Source: Gammaproteobacteria bacterium
Lineage (GTDB): Bacteria > Pseudomonadota > Gammaproteobacteria > Enterobacterales > GCA-2746155
Direction of reading: 5' to 3'
Assembly: GCA_030589945.1 (NCBI GenBank)
Contig: JAUUZN010000002.1
Span: 1 to 60,166 of the forward strand
Length of the DNA stretch: 60,166 nt
A program made the position numbers and the translations under genes. The notes beneath the pieces were generated by a model. It did not search any database and was not told where the DNA came from. It saw only the letters and a program-made list of their open reading frames with translations. Shown piece by piece: positions 8,056-57,704 of the stretch (position 1 is its first letter; each line of letters starts with the position of its first letter).

Positions 8056-8069
8056 TTAAGGAGATACTC

Positions 8070-8675: not shown

Positions 8676-8679
8676 GCCA

Positions 8680-8862
8680 ATGGATATTAATGTATTCAGA
8701 GGCATAACAACCTTAATTTTGTTAATCATCTTTATTGGCTTCATCTTTTGGGCATTTAGTAAAAACAGGAAAAAATCTTTTTCTGAAGCTGAATTAATGC
8801 CCTTTGATGACGAGCAAATAAAACAAATTAAAAAGCAACGTGAGGACAGCAATCATGAGTGA
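8680..8862 (+). CDS. ccoQ: cbb3 oxidase subunit IV
   Basis: Single TM helix, WAFSK...F..A..MPFDD, located between ccoO and ccoP. Confidence 0.92.
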   Translation: MDINVFRGITTLILLIIFIGFIFWAFSKNRKKSFSEAELMPFDDEQIKQIKKQREDSNHE

Positions 8863-9736: not shown

Positions 9737-9778
9737 GTGTTAAGATTATATTAATAGTTACTAATGTAAGCAGCTAAC

Positions 9779-11191: not shown

Positions 11192-11194
11192 AAT

Positions 11195-11713: not shown

Positions 11714-11722
11714 TAGGCCAAT

Positions 11723-19868: not shown

Positions 19869-19908
19869 AGACGTCTAGCGCCTTAGAGATATAGACGTTT
19901 AAAAGTCT
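19869..19908. promoter_or_regulatory. Five tandem Met boxes
   Basis: 8-bp register AGACGTCT AGCGCCTT AGAGATAT AGACGTTT AAAAGTCT upstream of metJ; the first box is the perfect consensus. Confidence 0.88.
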
Positions 19909-21088
19909 ATTTGGAAAACATTAGTTTGTGAATCACTTCATTACCTTCAGCGGGAGATTCGGGTATATTTCTTGATGCAATGAGAGAGCTAAAGGCAATC
20001 GCTGCGCCCAACCAAAATACCACTGAAGGACTAGTCAGCCAAATAATCCCAAACGCAGCCGGTATCACCACTGCGGCGATGTGACTGATAGTAAAACTAA
20101 CGCCTGATGTGGCGGCAATATCGGCTGGATCAGCAATTTTTTGGAAGTATGTTTTGATGGCAATGGCCATAGCAAAGAAGAGATGATCGATCACATAGAG
20201 TATCGCAGCAATCTGTGCATTTTCGACTAGGGCGTAACCAGAAAAAACTAAGATTAATGCGCAATATTCAATAGTAAGGGTCGTACGTTCACCAATTTTA
20301 GCGATAAACTTACCTATTCTCGGTGCAGCATAGAGATTTATCAGATGGTTAATTAAGAACAGCAGGCTGATATCTGCAGCAGAGTAGTTAAATTTTTCCA
20401 CCATCAAAAATCCAGCAAAAACCATAAAAATCTGCCGCCTAGCTCCGCTCAAAAAGATGAGTACGTAATAAAGCCAGTACTTCTGGCGCATGAATAGTTT
20501 CTTAGATTGCTCTACGGGCGTTTTAAACTTTGGGAATATTTTCATTGTCCCAATGACTAATAACAGGCCGGTTCCACCACAAATAAGGTACAGCCACTGA
20601 TAGGCAATTGAAAAATATTCAATGACGATCCAAAATAATGCATAGATAATTAATGATGTGAAAGAACGCACGGCGAGTAACTTTCCCATAAACTCAGGAC
20701 TATCTTTCTTGGGTATCCATTGCAGTACCAGAGATTGTTTGACCGCTTCAAAATAATGAAAACCTATAGACATTAAAAATGTAGTAGACAACAGACCAAT
20801 ACTGGAAGGAAAAAATCCAGTGAGTGCAACACCAATTGATAATATAGCAAGAGACACCATGGCTAGCATCTGCTCTGAGATGATTAGTAATACGAGAATA
20901 ACGGTAAAGGTTAAGAAGCCTGGAATTTCACGAATACTGTGTAAAAAACCGATATCAGCACCACTATAAGCAGCTTGCTCGATAGCAAAATTGTTAATGA
21001 GAACAACCCATGTGGAAAAGGTCAGGGGTAAAATCACTGACATAATGATGAGCAGTGAGCGTTCATTGATCCAAGGTTGGGTTTTCAT
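19907..21088 (-). CDS. MFS transporter
   Basis: About 12 hydrophobic helices; SIREIPGFL and SGARRQIF motifs. Confidence 0.88.
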   Translation of the reverse strand: MKTQPWINERSLLIIMSVILPLTFSTWVVLINNFAIEQAAYSGADIGFLHSIREIPGFLTFTVILVLLIISEQMLAMVSLAILSIGVALTGFFPSSIGLLSTTFLMSIGFHYFEAVKQSLVLQWIPKKDSPEFMGKLLAVRSFTSLIIYALFWIVIEYFSIAYQWLYLICGGTGLLLVIGTMKIFPKFKTPVEQSKKLFMRQKYWLYYVLIFLSGARRQIFMVFAGFLMVEKFNYSAADISLLFLINHLINLYAAPRIGKFIAKIGERTTLTIEYCALILVFSGYALVENAQIAAILYVIDHLFFAMAIAIKTYFQKIADPADIAATSGVSFTISHIAAVVIPAAFGIIWLTSPSVVFWLGAAIAFSSLIASRNIPESPAEGNEVIHKLMFSK

Positions 21089-21254: not shown

Positions 21255-22142
21255 ATGCACCAAATTGAATATATTGAACCCGTTTATCGACCACCTAGCG
21301 AATGGAAATCTCTGATTTTACAGGTGACAAACGGCTGTTCTTGGAATCATTGTACCTTTTGTGAAATGTATCAGGGTCAACAAAAAACCTTTAACCATAA
21401 ATCCATGGAACAACTGCGGCATGATCTTGATATTGCTAAACAGTCACAGATGCCAGTCAATCGAGTATTCCTTGCCGATGGTGATGCGATGACTCTTTCG
21501 GTGCGCAGACTCAAGGGTATATTGGAGCTCATCAACGAATATTTTCCAGAGGTACAGCGTATTTCATCCTATTGTTTACCGAGAAACTTAATTAATAAAA
21601 CGGTTGATGAGTTGAAGGAACTCAGGGCACTCGGCTTAAAACTCGTCTATGTGGGTTGTGAGAGCGGCGATGACGAGGTGTTAGAACTGGTTAATAAGGG
21701 TGAGAACTATGAGTCGTCTTTGGCGGCATTACTAAAGATAAAGGCTGCGGGGATTAAGTCTTCTGTGATGATATTAAATGGATTAGGTGGAGAATTACTC
21801 AGTCAACAACATGCGATAAACTCAGCGCGACTAATGAACGCGTCCCAGCCTGAATATCTTTCAACATTGGTTGTGAGTTTTCCTCTGGGTGTCGACAGGT
21901 TTGAACAACGATTCCCAAAGTTTGTTGCCTTAGATCAACAACAGTTATTTAATGAAATGAGAGTATTACTTGAGTCTTTGGAATTGAATAAAACTATTTT
22001 CAGAAGCGATCATGCAAGTAATTACCTAATTCTAAAGGGTATTTTAGGACGCGATAAGTCAAAGTTGCTCGATAAGGTTAATACTGCTATCCATCAGCCA
22101 CAACGAATTCATCTTAGACAAGAATCGCAACGGGGACTATAA
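21255..22142 (+). CDS. Radical SAM protein
   Basis: CSWNHCTFC (CxxxCxxC), VFLADGDA and FRSDHASNY motifs. Confidence 0.92.
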   Translation: MHQIEYIEPVYRPPSEWKSLILQVTNGCSWNHCTFCEMYQGQQKTFNHKSMEQLRHDLDIAKQSQMPVNRVFLADGDAMTLSVRRLKGILELINEYFPEVQRISSYCLPRNLINKTVDELKELRALGLKLVYVGCESGDDEVLELVNKGENYESSLAALLKIKAAGIKSSVMILNGLGGELLSQQHAINSARLMNASQPEYLSTLVVSFPLGVDRFEQRFPKFVALDQQQLFNEMRVLLESLELNKTIFRSDHASNYLILKGILGRDKSKLLDKVNTAIHQPQRIHLRQESQRGL

Positions 22143-22214: not shown

Positions 22215-22853
22215 ATGCTTCATAAATTAATAAGAATAATAAAAATGAGTTCAATGCTCATGGTCTTTTCCATGATATCTGCCTGTGCACCAATGATGGA
22301 AAACATTACTGATTACGTGCCTCCAAATTCCGAACTTGGGATGCAATGTATTGAGAAAGCTAATGTTGGACGAAATCGATGTGAAGCACAGCAGGAATCA
22401 GAGAGACTTAAGTGTGTTGATGGCGCCAGTGGTGAAGCTGAATATCGTTTTGGTGAGGCAGAAAGAACTTATTCTCATCAACTGGAAGATTATATTAATG
22501 CTGAAGAACAATTTGACTATGATTATGAACATTATCTTGAACAAAAACGTCTCATCATTCGAGACGGAGAATTAGAATATATTCAATGTTCAAAAGACGT
22601 CAATATGGATAAAATTGCACAGTTTCCAAAATGTGAAAAATTCTTGAAGACAGCAAATAAACGGGCAAAAAAATTACGTAAGCCTCGAGAACCTAGAAAA
22701 CCGAGAGCGCCAAACCTAGGTAGGATCTACTCCCGGTTAGTGGCTCAATGCAATGGTCGAAACAATGGCTGCCAGCAAGCTTTTGACCAGTCTTATCGAT
22801 CCTGTGGCGGCATTATTAATGTCCGGCAGGTCTGTGTGAGTAATTGTGATTAA
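22215..22853 (+). CDS. Cys-rich hypothetical lipoprotein
   Basis: Lipobox ISAC, many Cys residues, helical core. Confidence 0.7.
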   Translation: MLHKLIRIIKMSSMLMVFSMISACAPMMENITDYVPPNSELGMQCIEKANVGRNRCEAQQESERLKCVDGASGEAEYRFGEAERTYSHQLEDYINAEEQFDYDYEHYLEQKRLIIRDGELEYIQCSKDVNMDKIAQFPKCEKFLKTANKRAKKLRKPREPRKPRAPNLGRIYSRLVAQCNGRNNGCQQAFDQSYRSCGGIINVRQVCVSNCD

Positions 22854-24606
22854 TCGATTACAGCAAAAAGGCAAGTTCGGTCTACTGTCAATACTAATAC
22901 TATTTCATTGTTTACTTTCATTTTCCGTCGTTACTGCCCAGGAAAATGAGTTATCGAAAGATACTGATGCTAAGCCGGACGTTGAACGTCCCACAGAACT
23001 TACTCGCCAAATAGAAAGTACCAGAGGTCGTCTGGTCTATTTGATGTCTACAGAGCAAAGAAAAGAATTGCTTTTAGTACAGCTGCTTAATCAACTGACT
23101 AATTCTGAAGATTTAGAAGACTCGGATGAAAAGACGCAACTGGAAGCACAAATAAAGTCGTTGCGAGATGAGATAACGGTAACTCGTGAAGAGTTTGACA
23201 CTACACTAACGGGTGGTATCGAGCAGATCAAACTTGAATCTGATGTGGATGAAGCCTACAACTGGCGAAATGATCTTGAAGAAATCATGAAGCCAATCTT
23301 TAGAACGATGAAAGGCGTCACTGAAAAACCACGAGAGATTGAACGTCTGAGGTCTAAAATAAACTTTCTCGGGCGAGATATAGAACTAAGCAAATCAGCT
23401 CTTGCATTTATAAATCAGCTTGAGGGTGAACAGTTATCTGACATCTTCCTGCTCCGTATCAGCACTGCAAAAGAAGCCTGGTATAGCCGACTCTATTCTT
23501 TGGAAGAAGAACACAAAATTGTCGAGTTTCAGCTTCAAACGCGTCTGGATGAAAGTTCAAACTTCTTTAATAATTTTGGTGGAACATTGAAGGAGTTTGC
23601 AAGTGGACGTGGTTTATCCATTGCGATTGCCATATTTGCATTTTGGTCTGTTTGGATGATGTTCGCCTATGCGCGAAAAGCATATCGTTATGTACTTGCA
23701 AGAAGAAAATTAGAGTTTAAATCGGGCCTGACCTCGAGAGTTCTCTATTACGTCTATCAAATATTAGCCGGTACAGTTGCATTTGTTGCCATGATATTGG
23801 TGTTTTATGTCAATGGTGATTGGATCATGCTGGGTGTCAGCATGCTCATTCTCGCATCGGTGTTGTTTTCCATTAAAAATGTCTTACCAAAGTTTATTGT
23901 TGAATCAAAACTATTACTCAATGTCGGACCGGTCCGTGAGGGTGAACGCATTTTTTATCAGGGTATCCCGTGGAAGGTCGATAAAATACGCATCTACACA
24001 GAGTTGTTTAACCCGTTATTATCGGGTGGAAGGATTAGAGTTCAACTCAATGAATTAGTTGATATGAATTCGCGCCCCTACAGTAAATTTGAAGATTGGT
24101 TTCCTTGTAGAGAAGGGGACATGTTGTTGATGCCTGAAGGTCGACTGGTTAAAGTTGAACTACAAACACCCGATTTTGTGAAACTCAACTATACGGGTGG
24201 TGCAACTACTACCGTAAGAACCATAGATTTTTTATCCATGTCCTTCACAAATTTAAGTGAAGAATCCTTTAGAGTGTCATCATTTTTCGGCATCGATTAT
24301 AGCTTACAGAATAAGTCGACCAGTAAAGTTCCAGCTGTTTTCCGTGAAGAGATACAAAATATCCTAGAGAGTCAAAATTACGGAAAGTATCTTAAGGTAT
24401 TAAGAGTAGAATTACATGAGGCTGCAGGTTCTTCTTTGACTTATAAAATAATCGCAGATTTTCATGGAATTGCAGCTCGCTATCACAATATCATTGCCCG
24501 TGAATTACAAAGTGCTGCCATTGAAGTTTGTAATAACCACGGTTGGTTAATTCCATTCGAGCAACTCACCATCAATCAGGCTTCTATAGCTGAAATCGAA
24601 AGTTAG
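22846..24606 (+). CDS. MscS-like mechanosensitive channel family protein with periplasmic coiled coil
   Basis: Signal peptide, coiled-coil region, three TM helices, GPVREGERI, C-terminal IPFEQL. Confidence 0.65.
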   Translation: MINRLQQKGKFGLLSILILFHCLLSFSVVTAQENELSKDTDAKPDVERPTELTRQIESTRGRLVYLMSTEQRKELLLVQLLNQLTNSEDLEDSDEKTQLEAQIKSLRDEITVTREEFDTTLTGGIEQIKLESDVDEAYNWRNDLEEIMKPIFRTMKGVTEKPREIERLRSKINFLGRDIELSKSALAFINQLEGEQLSDIFLLRISTAKEAWYSRLYSLEEEHKIVEFQLQTRLDESSNFFNNFGGTLKEFASGRGLSIAIAIFAFWSVWMMFAYARKAYRYVLARRKLEFKSGLTSRVLYYVYQILAGTVAFVAMILVFYVNGDWIMLGVSMLILASVLFSIKNVLPKFIVESKLLLNVGPVREGERIFYQGIPWKVDKIRIYTELFNPLLSGGRIRVQLNELVDMNSRPYSKFEDWFPCREGDMLLMPEGRLVKVELQTPDFVKLNYTGGATTTVRTIDFLSMSFTNLSEESFRVSSFFGIDYSLQNKSTSKVPAVFREEIQNILESQNYGKYLKVLRVELHEAAGSSLTYKIIADFHGIAARYHNIIARELQSAAIEVCNNHGWLIPFEQLTINQASIAEIES

Positions 24607-28503: not shown

Positions 28504-29862
28504 TCAGGCTGTTTCTTTTCTTAAAAATGCTTTTATCATAACGATAATAAATAAAGTGCCACCAATAATAGAAATGGCTCCACCTGCGCCCATTAATCCC
28601 ATGCTAGCAATTTGTGGTAAGTGCTCCAACACATCTTCAGCACCAAATGTTTTACGCTGCACACCATAACCTCCAGACCAGACTAAGCCGATAATATGCA
28701 TTAGCTGTCCACCACCATAGATATAAGGTTGCCAACAGGCCATCTTTGACATCGGTCTAGAAAATCCTAGATATGGAAGAAGATGGTAAGCGAGTCCCAT
28801 GAATGCCAAGGTTACACCAACAATTGAACCATGATAATGGGCGGGCACTACCACATTCATTCCATCGATCATAAATCCGATAATTCCACCTGCCGCAAAT
28901 AATGTTATTGAGCTGAGTAGCGCTGCTTTAACGGGTAATTTATTAGCATGAAAAGTAGGAGACTTAATAATAGAAAACACCACAACAAATCCCAGAGGGA
29001 TGGAAGCTAATCCACCATACTTCATCAAATCAGTGAAGGCTGTTCTGTGCTCTAGTGAAACAACATCATATTGGAGATAAATGAAAGGAGTCACTACAAG
29101 AGGGAAGGCCGCTAACAAAAATAGCCATTGGGCAATTTTCGGCGAGAAGTCAATGCTGATTCCTGCAGCCTTGCCTATCCATAACCAGGCAACTAACAAT
29201 AACAATGTATGAGTATATTGCAGTATGTGACCGGAACCCCAAAATAAAACCTCGTAGAAAGCAGTACTTTCATAGGACGACGGTATCCCTACATAACTTG
29301 CAACCAACGAAATCAATGCCAATAGAGCAATCCATGCGCTGATATAGATGCCCGTATCTAACGCGTCAGAAGGACTAGGATTAGAAAAGTTAGGGGGGCT
29401 TGATGTTATTCTCAGTAAAATTTGTAATAGCATTCCCAAGCCAAAAATAGACAAGCCTGTGATGAATATTGGATGATCTAATATTGGGATATAATTATTC
29501 ATCAGCGGATTACCCACACCGATAAATGGAGCAATACTGATTGCTAGGGTTCCAGTTATCGCTAATCCAATGGCAATTTTATTGAGAACATTATTTTTAG
29601 AATCCGTGGTAAAACTCCACAAAACACCTGCAAAAGAAACAAACCATATCAATACTGAGAGATCCACATGAACAACCAAAGCCACATAAAAGAAGTTGCT
29701 AAAAGGAATCATTTCCTTTATCACGGGTGTACGTGATAGAACCAATACTATAGAAAATATTCCTGCCAAAACTAGTGAAACAACACTTAATTTTAACCAG
29801 GCTGATGCTATAGAATTTTCGGCATTGATTGATTTTGAAAATTGAAAATATTGACTTGTCAT
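28504..29862 (-). CDS. Degenerate heme-copper oxidase subunit I-like membrane protein
   Basis: About 12 TM helices. Keeps ALVVHVD (helix II His), WGSGHILQY and PAHYHG (helix X HxH), but has no helix VII His-His pair. Confidence 0.75.
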   Translation of the reverse strand: MTSQYFQFSKSINAENSIASAWLKLSVVSLVLAGIFSIVLVLSRTPVIKEMIPFSNFFYVALVVHVDLSVLIWFVSFAGVLWSFTTDSKNNVLNKIAIGLAITGTLAISIAPFIGVGNPLMNNYIPILDHPIFITGLSIFGLGMLLQILLRITSSPPNFSNPSPSDALDTGIYISAWIALLALISLVASYVGIPSSYESTAFYEVLFWGSGHILQYTHTLLLLVAWLWIGKAAGISIDFSPKIAQWLFLLAAFPLVVTPFIYLQYDVVSLEHRTAFTDLMKYGGLASIPLGFVVVFSIIKSPTFHANKLPVKAALLSSITLFAAGGIIGFMIDGMNVVVPAHYHGSIVGVTLAFMGLAYHLLPYLGFSRPMSKMACWQPYIYGGGQLMHIIGLVWSGGYGVQRKTFGAEDVLEHLPQIASMGLMGAGGAISIIGGTLFIIVMIKAFLRKETA

Positions 29863-29864
29863 TT

Positions 29865-30908
29865 TTATTGTTTAACTTCTCGGTTAATAAATATCATGAT
29901 AGAGAGCAATATCATTGCTCCGCCCTGATGCGCAACAGCAACAGGGACTGGCATGTTGAAAATTAATGTAGTGACACCCAGAGTTACTTGGATCACTAGC
30001 ATCGCTAAAAGGAAATGTGCTGCCTGACTGCTTTTTCTGGTAATCGCGAGACGTCTTAGTGCAAAACTAAAAACGGGGACTATCACCAGCAAAAGATAGG
30101 CTGTCATTCGATGGTTGAATTGGATCGTAGTTATGTTCTCAAACCAGTTTAACCAAAAGGGTACAAGGGTATACATGCCGTCAGGAATAAACTTTCCTTC
30201 CATCAGTGGAAACGTATTGTAGGCATAGCCGGCTTTAGTTCCAGCAACGAAGCCACCCGTGCTAATCATAAAAACAACCAAGCCTGTTAACGCCAAAGAG
30301 TAGCGATATAATGTTCGCCCTTGAGCAGTGTTAACAAGTTCACGGCCTTGTTGTAACAAACCAAAAGCAACCCATAAGATATAGCTAAATATCATCACAG
30401 CGGCAATTAAATGGGCCGTTAATCGATATTGACTAACCTGTGGGTCATTGACTAAACCGCTTTTAACCATGTACCAGCCGAGTACACCTTGTAGGCCGCC
30501 AAGGATAAACATGGTTATCATCTGCGGTAACATTTTGCGACGAATTCTACCGGCAAACCAGAAGAATAAGAATGGTATTAGAAATATCAATCCAATCAAT
30601 CGGCCCAATACGCGGTGAGAATATTCAAAATAAAAAATGCTTTTAAATTCATCCAAAGACATACCAATGTTTAACTTTTGATACTCTGGAAATTCTTGGT
30701 AATGTTTGAATGCTTGCATCCACTGGATTTCATTAAGCGGTGGTATTACACCCATAATGGGCTTCCAATCGACCATTGATAAACCGGAATGAGTGAGGCG
30801 GGTAGCTCCTCCTAAAATGATCATAAAAAAAATAACGGCAGCAACAATAAATAACCAAGTAGCCACCTGTTTGTCATGAGCGTTTTGTAATGATGTATCT
30901 ATACTCAT
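29865..30908 (-). CDS. ctaA: Heme A synthase, Cys-free COX15 type
   Basis: GGATRLTHSGLSM, FEYSHR..GR, RLTAHL, QFNHR and VAHQ motifs. Confidence 0.93.
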   Translation of the reverse strand: MSIDTSLQNAHDKQVATWLFIVAAVIFFMIILGGATRLTHSGLSMVDWKPIMGVIPPLNEIQWMQAFKHYQEFPEYQKLNIGMSLDEFKSIFYFEYSHRVLGRLIGLIFLIPFLFFWFAGRIRRKMLPQMITMFILGGLQGVLGWYMVKSGLVNDPQVSQYRLTAHLIAAVMIFSYILWVAFGLLQQGRELVNTAQGRTLYRYSLALTGLVVFMISTGGFVAGTKAGYAYNTFPLMEGKFIPDGMYTLVPFWLNWFENITTIQFNHRMTAYLLLVIVPVFSFALRRLAITRKSSQAAHFLLAMLVIQVTLGVTTLIFNMPVPVAVAHQGGAMILLSIMIFINREVKQ

Positions 30909-31918
30909 GAAAATGATTTTCCCGACATTTTTCTATTAAGAGATGTTAAAAACATTAATAACACGGCAGTCATGAAGTTATGAGAGAGCACCAAAAACAA
31001 CGGCAGTTGAACTAACAATGTGCTGATCCCTAATAAGAACTGAGCGACGACTAAAGAAAGCACCAACAAGCAGTCCTTGGCTAACCGACGATCGGAACTC
31101 CATTCGGATCGCATGAGAAATGTCACTATCGATATGAAATAGGCGAGAACAATTACACCTAAAAAATGATGTATGATTTGAATGAGCTTCATCTTGTCTT
31201 CAAGTATAACTTTGTCTTGGTTGTCCAATTGCAAAAAACCGACTGGATTGAAAGCCTCAATAATGTTTACACTCTCTATTTGCTTGGCACCACAATTAAA
31301 TAAACTTTCACAGCTAGAACCTGCAAAGTTAACACTGGTCCATCCCCCCCAGAATATTTGCAACAAAATAATAAACATACCAATACGAACGAAGGGAACA
31401 AGAGGTGATTCCATATGGATTTCTTTCGTTCCTGATATTTTTAGATAAAGATGTAAAAGCAACGCGACCAATACTAAACCCCCAACAAAATTACCCATTA
31501 AGAGAATGGGTAATGGCTGATTAGGATGAAACGGGCCTATGGCTGCTAAAAATACGGTCACTGATAAAATTGCCGTAGGAATGCGGTTACCGAGTATGTT
31601 TCGATACTTTTCACTCATCGTTAATAAAAAGAGGAATAAAATGATTAAGCCTAATGTACTGGTCACTATTCGATGAGCAATTCTTTCCATTCGATAAGGA
31701 GTGGCACGGGCTTCACTGGTTAGTACATTAACACCTTGAACACTTTTGTTATTTTGATATTGACCATAGCAGGAGGGCCATGGCTCACAACCAACGCCAG
31801 ATTCAGCTAGACGCACATAGCTACTGAGAACCACCGTCATTAAGGCGAATCCCAAAGCGATTATTATTAATGCAGGTAACCATCGGCTGACCTTAGTATT
31901 TGGTGTTTCGATATTCAA
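30905..31918 (-). CDS. Divergent second CtaA/COX15 family protein (Cys-pair type)
   Basis: YVRLAESGVGCEPWPSCYG, RIAHR, CESLFNC, IIHH and LSHN motifs. Confidence 0.78.
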   Translation of the reverse strand: MNIETPNTKVSRWLPALIIIALGFALMTVVLSSYVRLAESGVGCEPWPSCYGQYQNNKSVQGVNVLTSEARATPYRMERIAHRIVTSTLGLIILFLFLLTMSEKYRNILGNRIPTAILSVTVFLAAIGPFHPNQPLPILLMGNFVGGLVLVALLLHLYLKISGTKEIHMESPLVPFVRIGMFIILLQIFWGGWTSVNFAGSSCESLFNCGAKQIESVNIIEAFNPVGFLQLDNQDKVILEDKMKLIQIIHHFLGVIVLAYFISIVTFLMRSEWSSDRRLAKDCLLVLSLVVAQFLLGISTLLVQLPLFLVLSHNFMTAVLLMFLTSLNRKMSGKSFS

Positions 31919-31938: not shown

Positions 31939-32472
31939 TTATTTAAGAAGTAGCATTACTTCATGCCGAATTTTAGATATATCATTTGCTTTGAAACCTT
32001 GGTGTGCATACCGTAACACACCCTGCTTATCAATAAGGTATGAAGCAGGTAATACGTTAATCTGGTACAGTTTGTAAATATCGAGTTCAGCAGTATGCAC
32101 CACTGGATAATCTACTGGATATTTTACAAGAAAATCTCTGCCATTATTTGGATCATTGTCTAAATTAATAGCAAGAATTTCAAATTCATCGTTGCCAAGT
32201 TCTTTGCGCATTTTATCCAACAATGGCATGGATGTTAAACAGGGTTTGCACCAAGAAGCCCAAAAATCCAGATAGATAACTTTGCCGCGGTAATTTGTCA
32301 GTCTATCGTCAATGTTACCATCAGACATAAGTGATTGAAAAATAATTTCCGGTGCCATTTCACCAATTTTTAAAACCGGTGGCATTTTGCCAACAGGAGT
32401 TTCAACATCGCTGCAACCACTGATAAAAACAAGCCATAATATTAAAAAACAATTCAATAAATACTGTCGCAT
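31939..32472 (-). CDS. TlpA family disulfide reductase lipoprotein
   Basis: Lipobox ISGC and DFWASWCKPC motif. Confidence 0.92.
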   Translation of the reverse strand: MRQYLLNCFLILWLVFISGCSDVETPVGKMPPVLKIGEMAPEIIFQSLMSDGNIDDRLTNYRGKVIYLDFWASWCKPCLTSMPLLDKMRKELGNDEFEILAINLDNDPNNGRDFLVKYPVDYPVVHTAELDIYKLYQINVLPASYLIDKQGVLRYAHQGFKANDISKIRHEVMLLLK

Positions 32473-32825: not shown

Positions 32826-34901
32826 CTAAAGCTTGTTACTTGTTCCCCCTAAAATGATGAATTTTTTGGTATCCGGATCAAAGTCAATCACCAGTACACT
32901 TCTGGAAGCCAGATTAATTTCTCTGGTTTCCTGATAATTATAATCATCTAAATCTCTGTGATCCTTTAATTTTACAGTAATTTTATGCATCCCTGCTTTA
33001 ACGGTAAAGCGATGATATAATTTGGCCCTGCCATCATTATTCAAACCCGCCGGCATGACCACCTTGTGGTAAGACTCCACATCATTTATAAGTAATTGAA
33101 ACTCAATTGAGGAGCGTTCTCTAGGACATACTTTGGCGAGCCTCATATTAGCCGGTAAACTAAGCATTTCTTCATCAGAGCGAAAGCGACACTCACCAAT
33201 GATTTGACCCGTATGACGCAAACTTAGTTTAATGGTTGCTTCACCTTCTTCAATCTGTGTATAGGTTGGTGAATTAGAAAAGTAGCCAATAAATAATATT
33301 ATTGCCGCATAAAACAATGCCTGCCCAAAATAATTCTTACCTTTCTTTTGGAATCTGATATTACCTATATCTTCTGACACTTTTCCAGAATCTAAAAGCT
33401 GAGAAAAATTATTGACCTCCGATTTCAATGCTGGCAATTCCATTGCTCCAGCCCAACGGACTCTAACCTTATTATAATCTTTTGCAGCTGCCGTCCTTAA
33501 ATGCGGACTGCGTTCTCCTTTAAATCGTTCATCAATCCATTGATTTCCTAATCGGTAATAACAGTTTTCTAAGCAACAGCCGGTGACCATTACACCATCG
33601 GCATGATCTTTTCTTATCAAGTAGTCGACAAAAGAGGGGGGCAAAAAACCTATACAGGGCAGGCTAATTGGGATGGTGTTTTTGATGCCAATTTGCTCTA
33701 TGTCAGCACCTTTTTCGCAACCAAAGATAATGAGCCTGTCTTTACCCTTCAGTTGTCCAAGCTTGTTGATAATTTCGTGTTTAAATACATCAATAGAATA
33801 ATCCGGTATGCCGATACCACTCTTCAATTCATCAATGGTTTGAAAGGGTGTAGCAGATGGACAAGAACCCGTGCAAATTCCACAGGCTGTACATTTGTCA
33901 GGATTTACCACAGCGATACGTGGACTTTTATTATTAGGATGGGGTTCAAAACTAATTGCGTCGAATGGACAGTCGAGATCACACCAGCCACAACCATTAC
34001 AGCGATCTGGATTGATAACGGCTGCAGGCACTTTTTTGTGCTTCATTATTAACGGCAGGAAGCTTAAAAACATTGATATCCCTACCAGTAATACCCAAAC
34101 TGTCCCAGGTCCCCAATAATCAATCAAGGGATAAACATTAAGATAAAACCAATCAATTGGAATATTAACCGGTGTCTGACTTAAATCGGCGCGACCAGAA
34201 CTGATTGCAGGCTTTATTAGTGATAGCACAATGAACGCTATAATGGTTCCAATGGCCAAGCCTCTCGGAGGATTAGTTTTCGCTTTTGAGACACGGCTAA
34301 TATGGATAAACATAGCCAGCATCATAAATAGCGGAATACCAAAATGAAGAAATACCATCAATGAGAAGAAACGATCACTCACCGTATCGTTGCTTAAAAA
34401 GTTTCGAGCCATTGGATCGCCAAAAGTAGGCAACCAATCAAGAAATTCCATTGTGGCAACTGCAACATATTGTGCAAATTGATCCCATACTAGCCAATAG
34501 CCACCAATTGCTGCAGCAAACATAAACCATAGCAGTGGGATGCCTGTGAACCATGAAAACCAACGGGTACCGGTGAAGCGTCCCAGTGAGAATTCGCGCA
34601 CTAGATGCAGCGTTACTGTTAATGCTAATGCATCTGAGCAATAGCGGTGTAAGCTTCTTACAACTCCACCTAAATACCATTGTTCATTGGTTAAATACTG
34701 AAGCGAGTCATAGGCACCATTAATGCTGGTTTCAAAAAATATAAACAGATAAAGGCCGGTAACGGTTAAAATCCAAAAGAAATAAAATGATAAGGCGCCC
34801 AGTTGATAGAAGGGATTCCAATCGTCATCAAAAAATAAATTGAATGCTGCTTCCACACGATCAAATAAATAATGTAGAGACTTTTGTAAAACAGATAGCA
34901 T
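32826..34901 (-). CDS. Cytochrome b - 2x[4Fe-4S] - MvhD/FlpD-like - periplasmic domain fusion
   Basis: Cytochrome b motifs (RSLHRY, LHLVR, GYWLVWDQ, FLHF), CNGCGWCDLDCP, CTACGICTGSCP, then FGC...PCIG...GCCLENCYYRLGN, then one TM and a soluble domain. Confidence 0.88.
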   Translation of the reverse strand: MLSVLQKSLHYLFDRVEAAFNLFFDDDWNPFYQLGALSFYFFWILTVTGLYLFIFFETSINGAYDSLQYLTNEQWYLGGVVRSLHRYCSDALALTVTLHLVREFSLGRFTGTRWFSWFTGIPLLWFMFAAAIGGYWLVWDQFAQYVAVATMEFLDWLPTFGDPMARNFLSNDTVSDRFFSLMVFLHFGIPLFMMLAMFIHISRVSKAKTNPPRGLAIGTIIAFIVLSLIKPAISSGRADLSQTPVNIPIDWFYLNVYPLIDYWGPGTVWVLLVGISMFLSFLPLIMKHKKVPAAVINPDRCNGCGWCDLDCPFDAISFEPHPNNKSPRIAVVNPDKCTACGICTGSCPSATPFQTIDELKSGIGIPDYSIDVFKHEIINKLGQLKGKDRLIIFGCEKGADIEQIGIKNTIPISLPCIGFLPPSFVDYLIRKDHADGVMVTGCCLENCYYRLGNQWIDERFKGERSPHLRTAAAKDYNKVRVRWAGAMELPALKSEVNNFSQLLDSGKVSEDIGNIRFQKKGKNYFGQALFYAAIILFIGYFSNSPTYTQIEEGEATIKLSLRHTGQIIGECRFRSDEEMLSLPANMRLAKVCPRERSSIEFQLLINDVESYHKVVMPAGLNNDGRAKLYHRFTVKAGMHKITVKLKDHRDLDDYNYQETREINLASRSVLVIDFDPDTKKFIILGGTSNKL

Positions 34902-34994: not shown

Positions 34995-35915
34995 TTAATC
35001 TGTTTTATCGGTTACAGCTGAATCATTATTCTCGTCGTTGTGATTACCTGTTTTACTTAATTTCCACTCACGAACAAAAATTCTAACGAAGAATATACCC
35101 ATAACCAAGGCAACAAATATTCCAATAAAAATGGAATAGTTAAAATAATACTTATCTTGGGAAGGATCGTAAACAGTGCAGAATAGTTTTATCTTTGTCG
35201 AAATGGCAGAGAATAAAGAAGCACTCTTATTTTCACCAAAGACTAGCTCTTTTAGTGGTTCGACAAAATTGGGTGTTTGAGGTCTCATCCCATAAACTTG
35301 ACGGTAAACAACAGAATCTTTATCGAGTATGCTGGCTTGTATCATGTGATCAAAACCTTGGGGTGAGGCTGAAAAAATAAATCCCAAATCTCGTGCTAAG
35401 GCACTCATTGTTGCCGCATCTGTTGAAAGGAAAAACCAGTTTTTTGAACCTGAACTGTGCGACTTTGCAAACTGAGCCATTGCCTTGGGAGTGTCTATGT
35501 GAGTATCAAAACCAATAGTAATGACATTAAAACTATCCTCACCTAACACCTGCGTAGCTTTTTCAACCACCCGATTTAAATTTTCTGTAATGGTTGGACA
35601 AATATGATGACAACTAGTGTATATCATACTCACTATCAATGGTTTTCCACTGAAGGTTTTAGTGGTTAATATTGCACCATCCGATGAAGTAAAACGATAA
35701 TGACCTACCGATTGACCGATAGCAGCCTGACTGATTGCCAGTGCTTGCTCATTGCTATATTGGCTAATCTCTTCAGTTGCGGTATTTTTGTTTTTAATAT
35801 GGTCCTTGGCGGCTACATCTGATGTAGCAGCATTTGCTGTAGCACCGAAAGCCAAAAGGAATAAACAACTAACGGTGAATCGACGATTAAATCCCCGTTG
35901 AAAAAAATTAAACAT
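34995..35915 (-). CDS. SCO family copper chaperone
   Basis: YTSCHHICP (CxxxC), FDHM His, C-terminal TM helix. Confidence 0.9.
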   Translation of the reverse strand: MFNFFQRGFNRRFTVSCLFLLAFGATANAATSDVAAKDHIKNKNTATEEISQYSNEQALAISQAAIGQSVGHYRFTSSDGAILTTKTFSGKPLIVSMIYTSCHHICPTITENLNRVVEKATQVLGEDSFNVITIGFDTHIDTPKAMAQFAKSHSSGSKNWFFLSTDAATMSALARDLGFIFSASPQGFDHMIQASILDKDSVVYRQVYGMRPQTPNFVEPLKELVFGENKSASLFSAISTKIKLFCTVYDPSQDKYYFNYSIFIGIFVALVMGIFFVRIFVREWKLSKTGNHNDENNDSAVTDKTD

Positions 35916-35940: not shown

Positions 35941-35983
35941 CATTAGGCATTCCATTAGGCTCTCCATTAGGCTCTCCATTAGG
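35941..35983. repeat. 12-bp tandem repeat (~3.6 copies) spanning the ctaB stop
   Basis: CATTAGGCATTC CATTAGGCTCTC CATTAGGCTCTC CATTAGG. Confidence 0.85.
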
Positions 35984-36842
35984 TAAAGCCATTAAGTACT
36001 GAGCCGAGTAAAACCATTGTCAACTGTATTAATGATGCAAAAAAACAACTCATAGCACTCTTCTTATTGGTATTAATAACCAATTGTATACTTTTAATTA
36101 TAAAATAGGCGCCACCTGATAGGGCGCAGATTAGATAAACAACTCCCATTTCATAGAAAAAAGGCAAAATGGATACCGTCACCAGCATTAATGTGTGAAT
36201 GAGAATGACGATTGCCGCTTTTTCATCGCCTATCACTACTGGCAACATGGGCACCTTAGCAAGTGCATAATCTTTGTGAAGAGCAATGGCCAGACTCCAA
36301 AAATGTGGAGGTGTCCAAAGAAATAAAACCATGGCCAGTAATATTGAGGAACTATTTAAATCTGGTGATGCGGCAGCAGCTCCGGCCAATACTGCAAAAC
36401 TGCCAGATACACCGCCAATGATTATGTTGATACTGCTTCGACGTTTTAACCAGAGGGTATAAACGACTCCATAAAAGAAAGCGCCTAAGAATAAATAAAT
36501 CGCTACCATCGAATTAAAAACTATCCAGGCGGTAACCACTGAAGCGACAAGAATAGCTGCAATAATAAATAACCAAATAGAATGGTGTTTAATAACACCC
36601 GTTACAAAGGGTCTATTTTGCGTACGTGGCATTACCGAATCGAGATCTCTCTCAGCATATTGATTAAAAGCACCAGCGCTTGCTGAAGCCAAAACCACCA
36701 GCACCAACAACAGTGTGACTTCTGCTAGTGAAAGTTCTCTACCTGGTGTCACCGCATAGCCTGCAAGTGCAGTGACCGACATCATTATTCCGATCCTAAG
36801 TTTAAACAGATCGACCAATTGTCTGAGCATTAGAAACCTCAA
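35979..36842 (-). CDS. ctaB: Protoheme IX farnesyltransferase (heme O synthase)
   Basis: NQYAERDLD..M.RT..RP, YTLWLKRR and LWTPPHFWSLA motifs. Confidence 0.95.
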   Translation of the reverse strand: MRFLMLRQLVDLFKLRIGIMMSVTALAGYAVTPGRELSLAEVTLLLVLVVLASASAGAFNQYAERDLDSVMPRTQNRPFVTGVIKHHSIWLFIIAAILVASVVTAWIVFNSMVAIYLFLGAFFYGVVYTLWLKRRSSINIIIGGVSGSFAVLAGAAAASPDLNSSSILLAMVLFLWTPPHFWSLAIALHKDYALAKVPMLPVVIGDEKAAIVILIHTLMLVTVSILPFFYEMGVVYLICALSGGAYFIIKSIQLVINTNKKSAMSCFFASLIQLTMVLLGSVLNGFT

Positions 36843-38646: not shown

Positions 38647-39189
38647 TTATTTAACGACGTGGATCTTACCCACCATATTGTGATGACCTATACCGCAGAA
38701 TTCATTACAAATAATTGAAAATTCTCCGGATTTGTTAGGCGTAATGGTAAAGACATGTTCATATCCAGGTAACACTTGAATATTGATGTTTTCAGGTTGT
38801 AGAGAAAACCCATGATTCCAGTCCATAGAAGTCAAATGTAATCGATAACTTTGACCTTCTTTAAGTTCAAGAATTGGCCACCAGTCCCAGAGTCTCGCTA
38901 CAAGATAAACGTCGGAACCAATAGGTGGAGCAACCACTGGAAATTTACGGTCACCTTCTTCACGTATGGTAAATTCATCAACCATGGCTTGGGCTTTCTT
39001 TTGAAACAATTGAGGAGTGGTTCGATAGGTTTCAGCCGAGAGGTTTTGGTTTCCATACACGTGCCACAAAGGCATCATTAGTGTAAGAATTAAACCCCAG
39101 ACTATCACTATTCCAATCCAGATAAGTTCAACCCTTTCGATGGGCTCTTTCCACCATAGTTTTTGAGCCGGTGGTGATAGACATGTCAT
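38647..39189 (-). CDS. CuA-containing subunit II
   Basis: One TM helix; HGFS...CNEFCGIGHHNM CuA motif. Confidence 0.95.
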   Translation of the reverse strand: MTCLSPPAQKLWWKEPIERVELIWIGIVIVWGLILTLMMPLWHVYGNQNLSAETYRTTPQLFQKKAQAMVDEFTIREEGDRKFPVVAPPIGSDVYLVARLWDWWPILELKEGQSYRLHLTSMDWNHGFSLQPENINIQVLPGYEHVFTITPNKSGEFSIICNEFCGIGHHNMVGKIHVVK

Positions 39190-39241: not shown

Positions 39242-39388
39242 TTATTGAGCCAAAGGGATCGATACTAACTCCATAATTCCCCAGATCAGATAAGTCACTG
39301 TGGGTATTAATACACCTATAAATAATAATAAAAAGCTGTTATCCATAAGCTTTTGCATTAATGGAATATTTTCTTCATCATCTGCCAT
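39242..39388 (-). CDS. 48-aa single-TM small subunit, absent from the ORF track
   Basis: MADDEENIPLMQKLMDNSFLLLFIGVLIPTVTYLIWGIMELVSIPLAQ*, GGAG RBS, first gene after the FNR box. Confidence 0.8.
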   Translation of the reverse strand: MADDEENIPLMQKLMDNSFLLLFIGVLIPTVTYLIWGIMELVSIPLAQ

Positions 39389-39545: not shown

Positions 39546-39559
39546 TTGACTTAAATCAA
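39546..39559 (-). promoter_or_regulatory. FNR/DNR box of the eNOR-like operon
   Basis: TTGAC-TTAA-ATCAA, with a -10-like TACACT at 39520-39515 on the minus strand. Confidence 0.82.
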
Positions 39560-39656: not shown

Positions 39657-40172
39657 TTAATCCTTTTTTTTCTCAGCCGCATTAAATAATATTTCACTGA
39701 TTGCATCACCCGAACCGTCGTAAAGTGCTCCCCAATGGAGATCTTTACCGCCACAGATATTAATAGTCTTAGTTCGCCAATTTTCTAGCAAAGTGTTTCG
39801 AGTAGGATCTGTACCTGCCCATTCCAATGCTGCAGTTTTATGTATTGCATTCACATAAACTATTTCTCTTCTGAGCATTCCAAAGGAAACGTACTGTCGA
39901 TAGTAATCATCCAGATTTACTGCTTTTCCTGGTGCAAATTTTTCTAGCGCTGCAGGAAGCAATGTCTCAATTTTTTCAACTAATTTAATATCTAACTCGT
40001 TATAACTGGTTCTAAAGGATGGTGTCATCCTTGAACATTGCTTAAACATTTTTAAAATTTGGGGAACCTCATTAAGAATACTGTAATTTGTTTCTTTCGT
40101 TTCCGCCGAGATCTGAAGGGAGAAAGAAAAAACAACACACCATAGATTTATTAAAAAAAGACTACGTTTCAA
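39657..40172 (-). CDS. Exported hypothetical protein
   Basis: Signal peptide-like N-terminus, YYRQY..F motif, AGG RBS; no function recognised. Confidence 0.6.
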   Translation of the reverse strand: MKRSLFLINLWCVVFSFSLQISAETKETNYSILNEVPQILKMFKQCSRMTPSFRTSYNELDIKLVEKIETLLPAALEKFAPGKAVNLDDYYRQYVSFGMLRREIVYVNAIHKTAALEWAGTDPTRNTLLENWRTKTINICGGKDLHWGALYDGSGDAISEILFNAAEKKKD

Positions 40173-40352: not shown

Positions 40353-40429
40353 TGGCGCGCCCGGAGCGATTCGAACGCCCGACCAACTGGTTCGAAGCCA
40401 GTTACTCTATCCAGCTGAGCTACGGGCGC
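40353..40429 (-). tRNA. tRNA-Arg(UCG)
   Basis: GCGCCCGTAGCTCAGCTGGATAGAGTA-ACTGG-CTTCGAA-CCAGT-TGGTCGGGCGTTCGAATCGCTCCGGGCGCGCCA. 77 nt, encoded CCA, anticodon TCG. Confidence 0.95.
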
Positions 40430-53109: not shown

Positions 53110-53123
53110 TTGATCTAAATCAA
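53110..53123 (+). promoter_or_regulatory. FNR/DNR box of the heme-type TonB receptor
   Basis: Perfect TTGAT-CTAA-ATCAA, with -10 TACTAT at 53146-53151 (class II spacing). Confidence 0.88.
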
Positions 53124-53196: not shown

Positions 53197-55389
53197 ATGT
53201 ATAAATTTTTTACGTTAGCAGCCTTAGGCCTGCTGATAAGCTTTATGCCGAGTTCTGTTTTACTCGCCGAAGACGATTCCGGTCGTGATACAGACGAAAA
53301 TACAGTGGTGGTGATCGCCAACAAACAGTCACGAACCGTTTTTGAAGTGGTTGGGGCGGTATCAATTATCGATGCTGAGTCAATCGCCATAACCAATAGT
53401 GAAAATTTAGCTGATGCTCTTCGCTATGAAAGCAATATTGACATGGAGAATGCAGGCGCTCGATTTGGTTCTTCAGGTATTAATATAAGGGGTATTGGCC
53501 AAAATAGAGTCGCTGTTGAAGTCGATGGTGTGTCCAATGCCAAGCAGTTTTCGATTGGTTCCTACTCCAATGCGACTTCAATATTTCCTGAAACAGATTT
53601 AATTAAACGTATAGAAATACTTAATGGACCGGCTTCAACTCTTTATGGAAGTGATGCCATTGGTGGCATTGTCTCGATTCAAACTTGGGATCCAGTTGAG
53701 TTAATTCAAAAATCATCCGCTGAGAGATATTCAAAATTACGCATTGCTTATGATGGCAAGAATCAAGGACAGGCATTATCGGCCATTACTGCATGGCAAT
53801 CTGAACAATTTGATTCAATGGTGTCGGTAACGACTCGCCAAGGTAAAGAGTTGCTAAATCATGATTCAATCACTACTCCTGCTGATTCTGTTGATTGGTC
53901 TGAAAATAATATTTTCACTAAATTTGTATGGAATACCAATGAATCAGATGTTTTAAGGATCAGTTTAAACGCATCAAATCGAAAACAGGACACAGAAATT
54001 AATTCATTTCTTGGTCAAGAGCGATTTTCAAGAACAACAGAGTTAATTGGTAATGATGCACAGGATAATTATAAAGTTATTGCGAATTATGATTTTTCCT
54101 TAGATAACAATTGGTTTGATGACGGCTTATTCAAAGCCTATTACGGTGCGACTAGTTTTGAACAGACTACCAATGAACTGCGTTCTTCACGCAGAGGTAC
54201 ACCACTTGCCCAATATCGATATTTTGAATATCAACAGAGTGAGGTGGGTATTGAGCTTAATTTAAATAAAACGCTCAATTCAGATAATGCTACTCACAGT
54301 ATGATTTTTGGCATTGACATAAATTATGCGTCAATTGAAGAACTAAGAGATGGCTCTGAGACAAACCTAACAACCGGCATTACTAATACGAGCATCCTCA
54401 GTGAGGAATTTCCAAGACGAGATTTTCCCAATTCAGACGTTGATACTGTGGGTTTATTTGTTCTGGATGAGATAAAGATAGACGGCACGCCTTGGACATT
54501 AATACCTGCGATAAGAGTTGATCATTATCAGCTCAGTCCATCTCGGGATAGTCTTTTCGATGCCAATGGTACTGATACTGAAATTGTGTCAATTAGTGAG
54601 ACTGACTTTTCTCCAAAGTTGGGTGCTATGTATGAATGGTCGGACAATACCAATGTCTACTTTCAATACGTTCACGGATTTAGAGCACCACCCTTCGATG
54701 ACGTAAATATTGGTCTTAATATTCCGTTGTTTAACATTAAAGCAATCGCTAATCCAGATTTGAGGTCAGAATCTTCAGATGGCTATGAAATAGGCCTTAG
54801 AACAAAATCAGAGGATCAGTACTTTGAAGCCACAGTATTTTTAACAAATTACCAAGACTTTATTGAGTCAAAAGCAATCATCGGAATCGAGCCAGAAACA
54901 GGAGCATTACTATTTCAGTCGCGTAATATTGAAGAAGCAAAAATTTCTGGTGTTGAACTATCGCACCGTTGGCAAATAGGCCCCCAACTTAAAAGTTATT
55001 CAACCTTATCGACAACTCGTGGTGACAATGAAATTACAAATCAGCCATTGAACTCAATATCACCTGCTAAATTTGTCCATAACCTTGAATGGACCGGCGA
55101 TGATGGTCATTGGTCTGTTAATCTTTATTCTAGTTTTGTCAAAAAAGTTTCGAGAGTTGATGAGACAAATAATGACTACTTCAAACCATCTGGCTATGCA
55201 GTTTTTGATCTATTTTATAATTATAATTTTAGTGATAAGCACCATATCCAGGTGGGTTTATTCAATTTAACCAATAAAAAATATTGGAACTGGCAACAGG
55301 TCAAAAATTTCTCAACCAATGAAACAATCATTGACTCTTTGTCACAGCCATCAAGGACACTATCGGTTTCCTATCATTTATATTTGTAA
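53197..55389 (+). CDS. TonB-dependent heme/hemoprotein-family receptor
   Basis: IEILNGPASTLYGSDAIGG plug, INIRGIGQNRV, GFRAP...NPDL loop, GLFNLTNKKYW. Confidence 0.88.
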   Translation: MYKFFTLAALGLLISFMPSSVLLAEDDSGRDTDENTVVVIANKQSRTVFEVVGAVSIIDAESIAITNSENLADALRYESNIDMENAGARFGSSGINIRGIGQNRVAVEVDGVSNAKQFSIGSYSNATSIFPETDLIKRIEILNGPASTLYGSDAIGGIVSIQTWDPVELIQKSSAERYSKLRIAYDGKNQGQALSAITAWQSEQFDSMVSVTTRQGKELLNHDSITTPADSVDWSENNIFTKFVWNTNESDVLRISLNASNRKQDTEINSFLGQERFSRTTELIGNDAQDNYKVIANYDFSLDNNWFDDGLFKAYYGATSFEQTTNELRSSRRGTPLAQYRYFEYQQSEVGIELNLNKTLNSDNATHSMIFGIDINYASIEELRDGSETNLTTGITNTSILSEEFPRRDFPNSDVDTVGLFVLDEIKIDGTPWTLIPAIRVDHYQLSPSRDSLFDANGTDTEIVSISETDFSPKLGAMYEWSDNTNVYFQYVHGFRAPPFDDVNIGLNIPLFNIKAIANPDLRSESSDGYEIGLRTKSEDQYFEATVFLTNYQDFIESKAIIGIEPETGALLFQSRNIEEAKISGVELSHRWQIGPQLKSYSTLSTTRGDNEITNQPLNSISPAKFVHNLEWTGDDGHWSVNLYSSFVKKVSRVDETNNDYFKPSGYAVFDLFYNYNFSDKHHIQVGLFNLTNKKYWNWQQVKNFSTNETIIDSLSQPSRTLSVSYHLYL

Positions 55390-55403: not shown

Positions 55404-55460
55404 TTGATATAGGTCAATATATTGCTTTAAAAGTAGGTCTAAAATCTTGATTAAGATAAA
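55404..55460 (+). promoter_or_regulatory. Two FNR/DNR-like boxes and a -10 element upstream of nirS
   Basis: TTGAT-ATAG-GTCAA (55404-55417), -10 TAAAAT (55440-55445), TTGAT-TAAG-ATAAA (55447-55460). Confidence 0.78.

Positions 55461-55544: not shown

Positions 55545-57704
<2,160 letters not shown>

Follow-up and report, generated by a model that had tools for sequence, protein, structure and literature searches.

The PDWF-FeS clade of cytochrome b, described by Kao and Hunte in 2014 (PMC4122944), comprises proteins fused to 4Fe-4S and MvhD-type domains, and their gene clusters lack a Rieske protein. The same paper reports a form from Alicycliphilus denitrificans in which the cytochrome b is joined to ferredoxin and flavin oxidoreductase domains. 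Its passages on these fusions are confined to architecture and give no function, no link to the nitric oxide (NO) reductase eNOR and no C-terminal helix plus sandwich. A preprint on Ferrigenium straubiae (bioRxiv 10.64898/2026.01.22.701106) describes, in its account of the eNOR operon, genes for a cytochrome b-[Fe-S] and a cytochrome b-[Fe-S]-FAD-NADH protein, together with a heme O synthase, sco1 and a 'scaffold' protein. Both cytochrome b proteins were detected in the proteome of the denitrifying culture. A literature search on the function of such fusions found nothing beyond these two reports. Here, a relative of these proteins was analyzed. It is encoded on the minus strand at positions 32826..34901 of a 60,166-nucleotide stretch, the window, which covers positions 1 to 60,166 of contig JAUUZN010000002.1 from a gammaproteobacterium of the order Enterobacterales (assembly GCA_030589945.1). 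The gene is real and intact, and is the fused four-module form of a catalogued family. This family is tightly tied to eNOR.

As described in passages of PMC11214002, eNOR ranks in nature among the commonest NO reductases and produces N2O, and it uses a heme A-type heme while serving denitrification, with microoxic conditions required. In these passages, nothing was found on its natural electron donor. CtaA is mentioned there for eNOR operons, and the fusion gene is mentioned neither in these passages nor in section 7, Dataset S1 or part of S6; the SI appendix may show operon maps.

Architecture of the fusion protein

The open reading frame (ORF) starts with ATG and encodes a protein of 691 residues, P0001. 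A Pfam scan placed PF00033, PF00037/PF12838 and PF02662 on this one chain. Residues 1-290 (34032..34901, minus strand, as are all parts of the gene) are a bc-type cytochrome b with helices A-F. Cytochrome_B (PF00033) matched residues 29-204 (E 7e-21, 75.4 bits against a cut-off of 27.2), and among solved structures residues 27-207 matched cytochrome b6 (6rqf_I, E 2.6e-19). On the cytoplasmic side, residues 293-350 (33852..34025) carry two CxxCxxCxxxC(P) motifs, recognized by Fer4 (two stretches within 295-349) and Fer4_7 (residues 300-349) and matching polyferredoxin and HdrA ferredoxin domains as well. An FlpD/MvhD-like domain with C395, C416, C442 and C447 occupies residues 380-505 (33387..33764). 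FlpD (PF02662) matched residues 408-501 (E 4.9e-9, 36.7 bits against a gathering cut-off of 22.3), the MvhD chains 9sw2_D (E 4.3e-6) and 5odc_D (E 3.6e-4) were also matched, and Cys416, Cys442 and Cys447 align with the MvhD cysteines of 9sw2_D. The four conserved cysteines of this domain presumably bind a [2Fe-2S] cluster, which we take to be the role of MvhD-type cysteines from the Mvh-Hdr structures. Residues 517-691 (32829..33353), hereafter FUS_C, comprise a transmembrane helix (524-543) and a periplasmic beta-sandwich in the AlphaFold model. In most relatives FUS_C is a separate adjacent gene product of about 167 residues, matching residues 520-690 and encoded directly after a protein of about 515 residues, FUS_N. 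No NCBIfam model reached its cut-off for P0001. The best models below cut-off were the b6-like 'ExtP' cytochrome, cytochrome b6, and the C-terminal ferredoxin plus MvhD part of HdrA2.

The AlphaFold model of P0001, computed from a 30-sequence alignment, had a predicted local distance difference test score (pLDDT) of 84.6 and a predicted template modeling score (pTM) of 0.80. Its best Foldseek match was the cytochrome b of bc1 (1pp9_C) over about 287 columns, so that the membrane part consists of helices A-F and extends beyond the four-helix b6 core. The counts of Lys plus Arg in the loops agree with an N-in topology by the positive-inside rule, and hence with cytoplasmic iron-sulfur (Fe-S) domains and a periplasmic last domain. 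The first [4Fe-4S] motif lies within about 10 residues of the entry of the chain into the cytoplasm. Sequence and model together predict six bc-type helices with two b hemes, one near each membrane face. A preliminary description of this DNA had given the domain order as cytochrome b, two [4Fe-4S] motifs, MvhD/FlpD, and a transmembrane helix plus a soluble domain with two cysteines. Pfam, the structure matches, AlphaFold and the topology confirmed every part of it.

Residue conservation was assessed in 104 near-full-length relatives out of 111 fetched loci (23 class-level, 80 of 518 metagenome relatives and 11 phylum-level, of which three overlap loci already counted). The heme ligands H85, H99, H186 and H200, the eight [4Fe-4S] cysteines (C301/304/307/311 and C337/340/343/347) and the FlpD cysteines C395, C416, C442 and C447 were each present in 104 of 104; C443 is variable. 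Retention of all 16 cofactor ligands in every relative is conservation far beyond chance. The Qo-type residues W139-D140 (the 'WDQ' region of b6), D250 and W251 were likewise found in 104 of 104. The ef-loop motif of P0001 is I249-D250-W251-F252 (IDWF), which retains the D, W and F of xDWF. The first residue of this motif differs among the 104 relatives, with LDWF in 59, FDWF in 12, IDWF in 8 and PDWF in 4. A quinone link of P0001, read only from the Qo-type motifs WD (139-140) and xDWF (249-252), is plausible.

The cytochrome b of P0001 shares with those of b6f and bc1 the four histidines, the H-x13-H spacing, VRSLHRY, WDQ and the ef-loop xDWF. It differs in having only helices E-F of the C-terminal part (PF00032 was not reported) and in having no Rieske, c1 or f partner in the window. 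The heme ci cysteine is also missing, with Gln where b6 has Cys in FYCLGG, and the Fe-S domains replace the continuation to helices G-H of bc1 and b6f. The order of two [4Fe-4S] motifs followed by MvhD is the same as in the HdrA C-terminal ferredoxin plus MvhD of Mvh-Hdr and in HdrA2 (NF040770 positions 571-769 match residues 293-504). MvhD normally connects hydrogenase to heterodisulfide reductase. The relay of P0001, however, ends in a membrane cytochrome b and not in a flavin, and no hydrogenase or HdrA family, the HdrA flavoprotein included, was found among the 49 scanned ORFs of the window. In NarI-NarH, HdrE-HdrD and QmoC-type systems, a di-heme membrane cytochrome b is wired to cytoplasmic Fe-S clusters, connecting quinol and a cytoplasmic site. 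The NarI/HdrE-type cytochromes b have other folds and are not of the bc type with a Qo motif. CcoG/FixG, which acts in cbb3 oxidase assembly and is covered by the review PMC7558416, likewise sits in the membrane, carries two [4Fe-4S] clusters, ends in an Ig-like domain in the periplasm and is encoded beside a heme-copper enzyme. Its likeness to P0001 is architectural only, and both a cytochrome b and an MvhD domain are missing from it.

The closest relatives thus remain those of the PDWF-FeS clade, which P0001 resembles in the fusion of cytochrome b, 4Fe-4S and MvhD domains and in the missing Rieske protein of the gene cluster. The Qo motif of the clade is PDWF, as opposed to IDWF in P0001, and the assignment is by architecture and not by the tree of PMC4122944. 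By its predicted domains, P0001 is an eNOR-associated member of the PDWF-FeS clade, fused here to the usual downstream partner.

Association with eNOR

The heme-copper subunit I encoded near the fusion, P0121 (36931..38637, minus strand; PF00115), contains GHSSQQ, in which a Gln at His+4 replaces the cross-linked Tyr. A Tyr is found at Gln+11, and SMVH provides the S-x-x-H motif. These are residues listed as diagnostic for eNOR in PMC8756737 and in Dataset S1 of PMC11214002 (K-channel Ser/His and Tyr), within the portions of these sources that treat them. Subunit II (38647..39189, minus strand) has the CuA motif H...CNEFCGIGHHNM, also expected of an eNOR. The neighboring enzyme therefore carries the eNOR signature and is predicted to be an eNOR, as the preliminary description had suggested.

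Co-occurrence was scored in samples within Pseudomonadota, where the eNOR counts refer to one clade and all eNOR matches were at least 49% identical to the query. Only 2 of 301 genomes of the window's order encode the fusion, a patchy distribution. Among 400 scored genomes of the class, the fusion was found in 27 and eNOR in 23; both were present in 23, eNOR only in 0 and the fusion only in 4 (G399, G604, G614 and G624). Counted by genus, these numbers correspond to 22 of 321 for the fusion and 19 of 321 for eNOR. All four fusion-only copies are on short contigs (three loci of at most 3.7 kb and a fourth contig of 9.3 kb). The phylum sample of 401 genomes gave 53 with the fusion, 51 with eNOR, 50 with both, one with eNOR only (G772), three with the fusion only (G824, G838 and G845) and 347 with neither. 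Two of these three fusion-only assemblies are 77 and 82% complete, and the third consists of 730 contigs. The fusion thus accompanies eNOR in 23 of 23 and in 50 of 51 genomes. Independent distribution, which the preliminary description had named as the outcome that would count against its proposal, was not observed.

The two genes are also usually neighbors. eNOR subunit I was found in the fetched stretch at 18 of 20 class loci; one miss is at a contig end and in the other eNOR is 16 kb away. In every one of the 28 metagenome loci that extend 4.8 kb or more upstream, eNOR lies upstream of the fusion, and SCO1 is upstream in 55 of 59 metagenome loci. The minimal conserved set, seen for example in L049 and L050, is subunit II, subunit I, SCO1, FUS_N and FUS_C. 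Exceptions to the linkage were found in at least five genomes. The fusion pair and eNOR are 0.93 Mb apart in G706, while G743, G775, G800 and G785 have the pair without an eNOR gene within about 8-9 kb and eNOR elsewhere in each genome. The pairing thus persists when the genes are unlinked, and the tie is not confined to a shared operon. FUS_N and FUS_C remained together in all five unlinked loci, and no CtaA match was found within about 8-9 kb of them. Four of these loci were scanned further: the next gene encodes a cytochrome cd1 (Cytochrom_D1) protein in two, and isc genes are on the other side in three. Cytochrome cd1 genes directly after FUS_C were observed at L205:6325-8019 and L208:6061-7827 (both minus strand); they may encode NirS or a NirN/NirF-type relative. 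Searching genome contigs with the fusion protein alone returned only three loci.

In the sampled Pseudomonadota, the pairing of the fusion family with eNOR is the rule. The operon section of the Ferrigenium preprint calls the genes 'rather unusual' and Ferrigenium-specific (bioRxiv 10.64898/2026.01.22.701106), whereas the pairing is widespread in the samples studied here.

The C-terminal module

FUS_C is a regular component of these loci. It is present in 20 of 20 class-level loci, two of them fused, and in 63 of the 65 metagenome loci with enough downstream DNA, five of them fused. The AlphaFold model of residues 517-691 (pLDDT 91.8) shows one helix followed by a beta-sandwich. Across 83 relatives the conserved core consists of Arg594, Arg596, Gly619 and Asp623 (83 each), Cys571, Cys592 and Arg587 (82 each) and His563 (81), so the cysteine pair noted in the preliminary description is kept in 82 of 83. 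His639 (67 of 83, with Tyr in 14) and Met586 (76 of 83, absent in 7) are not strict. A copper site formed by two Cys, two His and Met was considered and dropped on this account. By residue conservation in the 83 relatives, no conserved copper-type or Rieske-type site is evident in FUS_C.

Comparisons of fold and sequence gave no closer identification. Pfam reported no family at E<=1 for three of three FUS_C copies, FixG_C included, and Foldseek returned no match at E<=0.001. Alignment with VIA-align retrieved generic Ig-like sandwiches only, with the luminal domain of HGSNAT at the top (Z 8.8) and extracellular domains of PepT also listed. No cupredoxin or Rieske fold was among the VIA-align matches listed, and one is still possible. 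Comparison of FUS_C with the CcoG encoded in the window by hhalign gave a probability of 1.7%, that is, no detectable sequence likeness. Leads from the ESM Atlas place a FUS_C-like fold in Fer4 plus FlpD or cytochrome b plus Fer4 proteins labelled Nitrospinota, Nitrospirota, Chloroflexota and Bacteroidota.

Paralogs and tandem copies

Three paralogs were found in which the same cytochrome b is fused to NAD(P)H-oxidizing modules, either flavodoxin+FAD+NAD or Fer2+FAD+NAD (L047:4872-7412, minus strand; L105:8043-9983, plus strand; L222:8586-10571, minus strand). The single flavodoxin+FAD+NAD paralog (CPR/CysJ-like) is inside an eNOR cluster. One of the two Fer2+FAD+NAD paralogs is also in an eNOR cluster and the other is elsewhere in a carrier genome, so that two of the three flavin paralogs sit in eNOR clusters beside the Fer4-FlpD form. 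As NAD(P)H-oxidizing modules are electron inputs, these paralogs suggest that the cytochrome b is reduced from the cytoplasm. The L222 paralog adjoins a polyprenyl synthetase gene.

All 17 carriers of family f288, which have small genomes of 1.2-2.3 Mb, gave two fusion matches each. Tandem cytochrome b-Fer4-FlpD copies lie between SCO1 and FUS_C at L212:7283-10453 and L213:6651-9886. By analogy, such pairs may recall dimeric bc complexes.

Gene neighborhood in the window

On the minus strand, the cluster consists of a 48-residue ORF, subunit II, subunit I, CtaB, SCO1, the fusion, a TlpA-like protein, a divergent CtaA, CtaA and a subunit-I paralog, in that order. The 48-residue ORF (39245..39388), directly upstream of subunit II, encodes a single hydrophobic helix as read from its sequence; it has no Pfam family and may be a small third eNOR subunit. 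The heme O synthase CtaB/CyoE (35979..36842) was identified by TIGR01473 (268.5 bits against a cut-off of 210.3). The SCO1/SenC copper chaperone directly upstream of the fusion (34995..35915; PF02630, E 6e-14) has a CHHIC motif. Downstream of the fusion are a TlpA/ResA-type periplasmic thioredoxin recognized in profile scans (31939..32472), a divergent CtaA/COX15 paralog (30905..31918; PF02628, E 8e-36) and the heme A synthase CtaA (29865..30908; PF02628, E 8e-110). A CtaA-family gene was found in five of five carrier genomes checked.

The last gene of the cluster (28504..29862; PF00115, E 2.9e-13) encodes a subunit-I paralog of 452 residues, COX1deg. Compared with six eNOR subunits I and eight orthologs, it keeps the three heme axial histidines and one CuB-type histidine and has lost the HH pair; H65, H212, H342 and H344 are invariant. 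COX1deg looks like a two-heme protein without the binuclear metal, judging from these residues. It is itself conserved, with 40-55% identity among 10 copies, and adjoins CtaA even away from the eNOR cluster (G398). COX1deg was rejected as an obligate partner of the fusion, as it was not found in three of five carrier genomes of 99-100% completeness. Co-folding of residues 1-290 with FUS_C and COX1deg gave a score of 0.00 (mark 0.32), but the controls themselves did not fold.

The preliminary description had remarked on the absence of a nearby Rieske protein or cytochrome c1. This holds for the window, where neither matched any of the 49 scanned ORFs of at least 90 residues. A canonical operon for Rieske protein, cytochrome b and cytochrome c1 is found on contig C178 of the same genome, and a bc1-type cytochrome b in five of five other carrier genomes checked. 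This coexistence led us to discard the idea that the fusion replaces bc1. An A-type oxidase is also encoded in the window's own genome.

The FNR/Dnr consensus is TTGAT-N4-ATCAA. With this consensus, 22 matches were counted in the window against 7.03 expected. A box with one mismatch, TTGACTTAAATCAA (39546..39559), is found 158 bases upstream of the 48-residue ORF. A perfect TTGATCTAGATCAA box at 6485-6498 precedes ccoN, at the start of a region (6485-14191) with a cbb3 oxidase operon (ccoN, ccoO, ccoP), ccoG and a Cu-type P-type ATPase. Another perfect FNR-type box (53110-53123) precedes a TonB-dependent heme receptor gene (53197-55389), and an FNR-like box with one mismatch (55404-55417) is near a plus-strand gene (55575-57704) for a protein of 709 residues with two N-terminal cytochrome c domains and a cd1 nitrite-reductase (NirS-like) domain. 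Contig C194 carries another cd1 gene.

Beyond the eNOR operon, a 171-residue ORF (39657-40172, minus strand) has an N-terminus that looks like a signal peptide by eye and belongs to no family. It is kept upstream of the eNOR operon in L003 with 52% identity. A tRNA-Arg (TCG) gene (40353-40429, minus strand) is just beyond it. Two further ORFs, of 586 residues (22846-24606, plus strand) and 393 residues (19907-21088, minus strand), matched no NCBIfam family at E<=1e-10; they adjoin a radical-SAM-like ORF (21255-22142) and the molybdenum cofactor genes mobA and moaB.

Possible function

A dedicated transmembrane electron module serving eNOR is a possible role for the fusion, and the one tentatively favored here. 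The three clusters and two hemes would form one wire from a cytoplasmic redox partner to a periplasmic Qo-like pocket (WD, xDWF), in the order MvhD-type cluster, two [4Fe-4S] clusters, inner heme, outer heme and pocket. The FUS_C sandwich would cap the pocket at the position of the Rieske head. Electrons from the cytoplasm, from quinol at the pocket, or both would be carried to the periplasmic side, where eNOR would use them to reduce NO and a cd1 enzyme perhaps to reduce nitrite. We infer a direction from cytoplasm to outside because the paralogs carry NAD(P)H-oxidizing flavin modules. In favor of this role are the invariant cofactor sites, the bc-type fold, the co-occurrence and synteny with eNOR, the persistence of the pairing in unlinked genomes, the cd1 genes beside two unlinked pairs, the FNR/Dnr-like box before the operon, the nirS-like gene in the same window and the detection of both Ferrigenium cytochrome b proteins in the denitrifying culture.

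Several observations weigh against such a module. eNOR takes its electrons through the periplasmic CuA, and no periplasmic redox centre is evident in the fusion; no cofactor was found for the step from the outer heme or quinone to CuA. As bc1 coexists with the fusion in the window's genome and in the five other carriers, no replacement is needed. In the biochemical part of PMC11214002, purified R. marinus eNOR consisted of two subunits and worked with N,N,N',N'-tetramethyl-p-phenylenediamine (TMPD)/ascorbate. The gene sits among the assembly genes SCO1, CtaB and CtaA, which fits maturation equally well. Finally, the carriers are kin, and many of those in the phylum sample belong to two families, f291 and f288, so the counts overstate the number of independent events. 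The proposal in the preliminary description of an electron module for an eNOR-like system therefore stands as regards a specific companion, by co-occurrence and synteny, and is no more than tentative as regards feeding CuA.

Nearly as likely is that the wire is a maturation reductase, although by itself this too is doubtful. It would export reducing power to build eNOR, acting on Cu(II)/Fe(III) for CuA and FeB or on SCO1 or heme intermediates. The constant position of SCO1 upstream of the fusion, its place in the minimal set and the cluster's own CtaB, CtaA and TlpA all point this way. The architecture is CcoG-like, and the account of copper reductases in PMC7558416 describes CcoG as a cupric reductase whose donor is unknown; the flavin paralogs match the design of the FRE/STEAP metal reductases treated in the same source. 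The Fer2-FAD-NAD and CPR-like paralogs also represent the kind of module that supplies Cox15, which in yeast receives electrons from ferredoxin and ferredoxin reductase (PMC7140478, in its passages on Cox15). Nevertheless, 347 of the 401 phylum genomes have neither eNOR nor the fusion, though A-type oxidases, whose share among the 347 is uncounted, also need CuA and heme A. The unlinked pairs lie beside cd1-type or isc genes and not beside assembly genes, and FUS_C has neither a strict set of metal ligands nor a detectable likeness to the window's CcoG. An electron sink for O2-independent heme A synthesis, the other role proposed in the preliminary description, would pass electrons from heme O oxidation by the CtaA paralogs through the Fe-S chain and b hemes to quinone. 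It would account for CtaA, the divergent CtaA and the CuB-less COX1deg downstream of the fusion, for the position of COX1deg in G398, beside CtaA and apart from the eNOR cluster, and for a heme A-type enzyme that is denitrifying, as stated in the eNOR sections of PMC11214002. The same sections report that eNOR needed microoxic conditions, however, and the cytoplasmic modules of the paralogs are electron donors. The five unlinked loci have no nearby CtaA match, and COX1deg was not found in three of the five nearly complete carriers. With input-type modules and no CtaA near the unlinked pairs, this role is very improbable.

The Qo-type residues raise a further alternative, that of a bifurcating bc-like module. 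Quinol would be oxidized at the xDWF pocket, with one electron passing to eNOR/CuA and the other through the b hemes and the Fe-S chain to ferredoxin or NAD(P)+. Invariance of W139, D140, D250 and W251 in all 104 relatives, the lack of a Rieske protein in the cluster and an Fe-S chain in place of the Qi exit are in keeping with it, and a quinol:NAD+ oxidoreductase coupled to NO reduction is a speculation of the Ferrigenium preprint in its discussion of the operon (bioRxiv 10.64898/2026.01.22.701106). The tandem copies in the 17 f288 genomes are expected if bc-type dimers matter. The outer-to-inner flow would nevertheless oppose the membrane potential, and the low-potential electron, by an uncomputed estimate, would not suffice to reduce NAD(P)+ if the quinone is ubiquinone. 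Moreover, CPR-like and Fer2-FAD-NAD modules normally oxidize NAD(P)H, and no high-potential centre was identified at the pocket. Bifurcation is thus unlikely. Its more specific version is less likely still: FUS_N and FUS_C would be a Rieske-less bc-type quinol oxidase, in which the sandwich-capped xDWF pocket is the docking site of the eNOR CuA subunit, the high-potential acceptor, and the second electron is pushed through the b hemes into the Fe-S chain. If this were true, NO reduction would drive a bifurcation that makes ferredoxin or NAD(P)H in denitrifiers. Lastly, the fusion could be a general quinone oxidoreductase that rides with eNOR in the same mobile gene island, with no functional tie. 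The patchy occurrence in the window's order and the single operon shared by most copies with eNOR are what such an island would leave. Co-occurrence persists where the genes are unlinked, however, and the carriers without detected eNOR number only 3 of 53 and 4 of 27, on short contigs or in incomplete or fragmented assemblies. There is little to commend this explanation, which we regard as no more probable than the heme A sink.

The architecture was published in 2014 and the link to eNOR was noted in a 2026 preprint, so no new type of system is added here. What is of interest is the job of the family rather than this copy. A two-heme, three-cluster protein that is almost always found with eNOR in the sampled Pseudomonadota is an obvious candidate for the factor still missing in the electron supply or the maturation of this enzyme.

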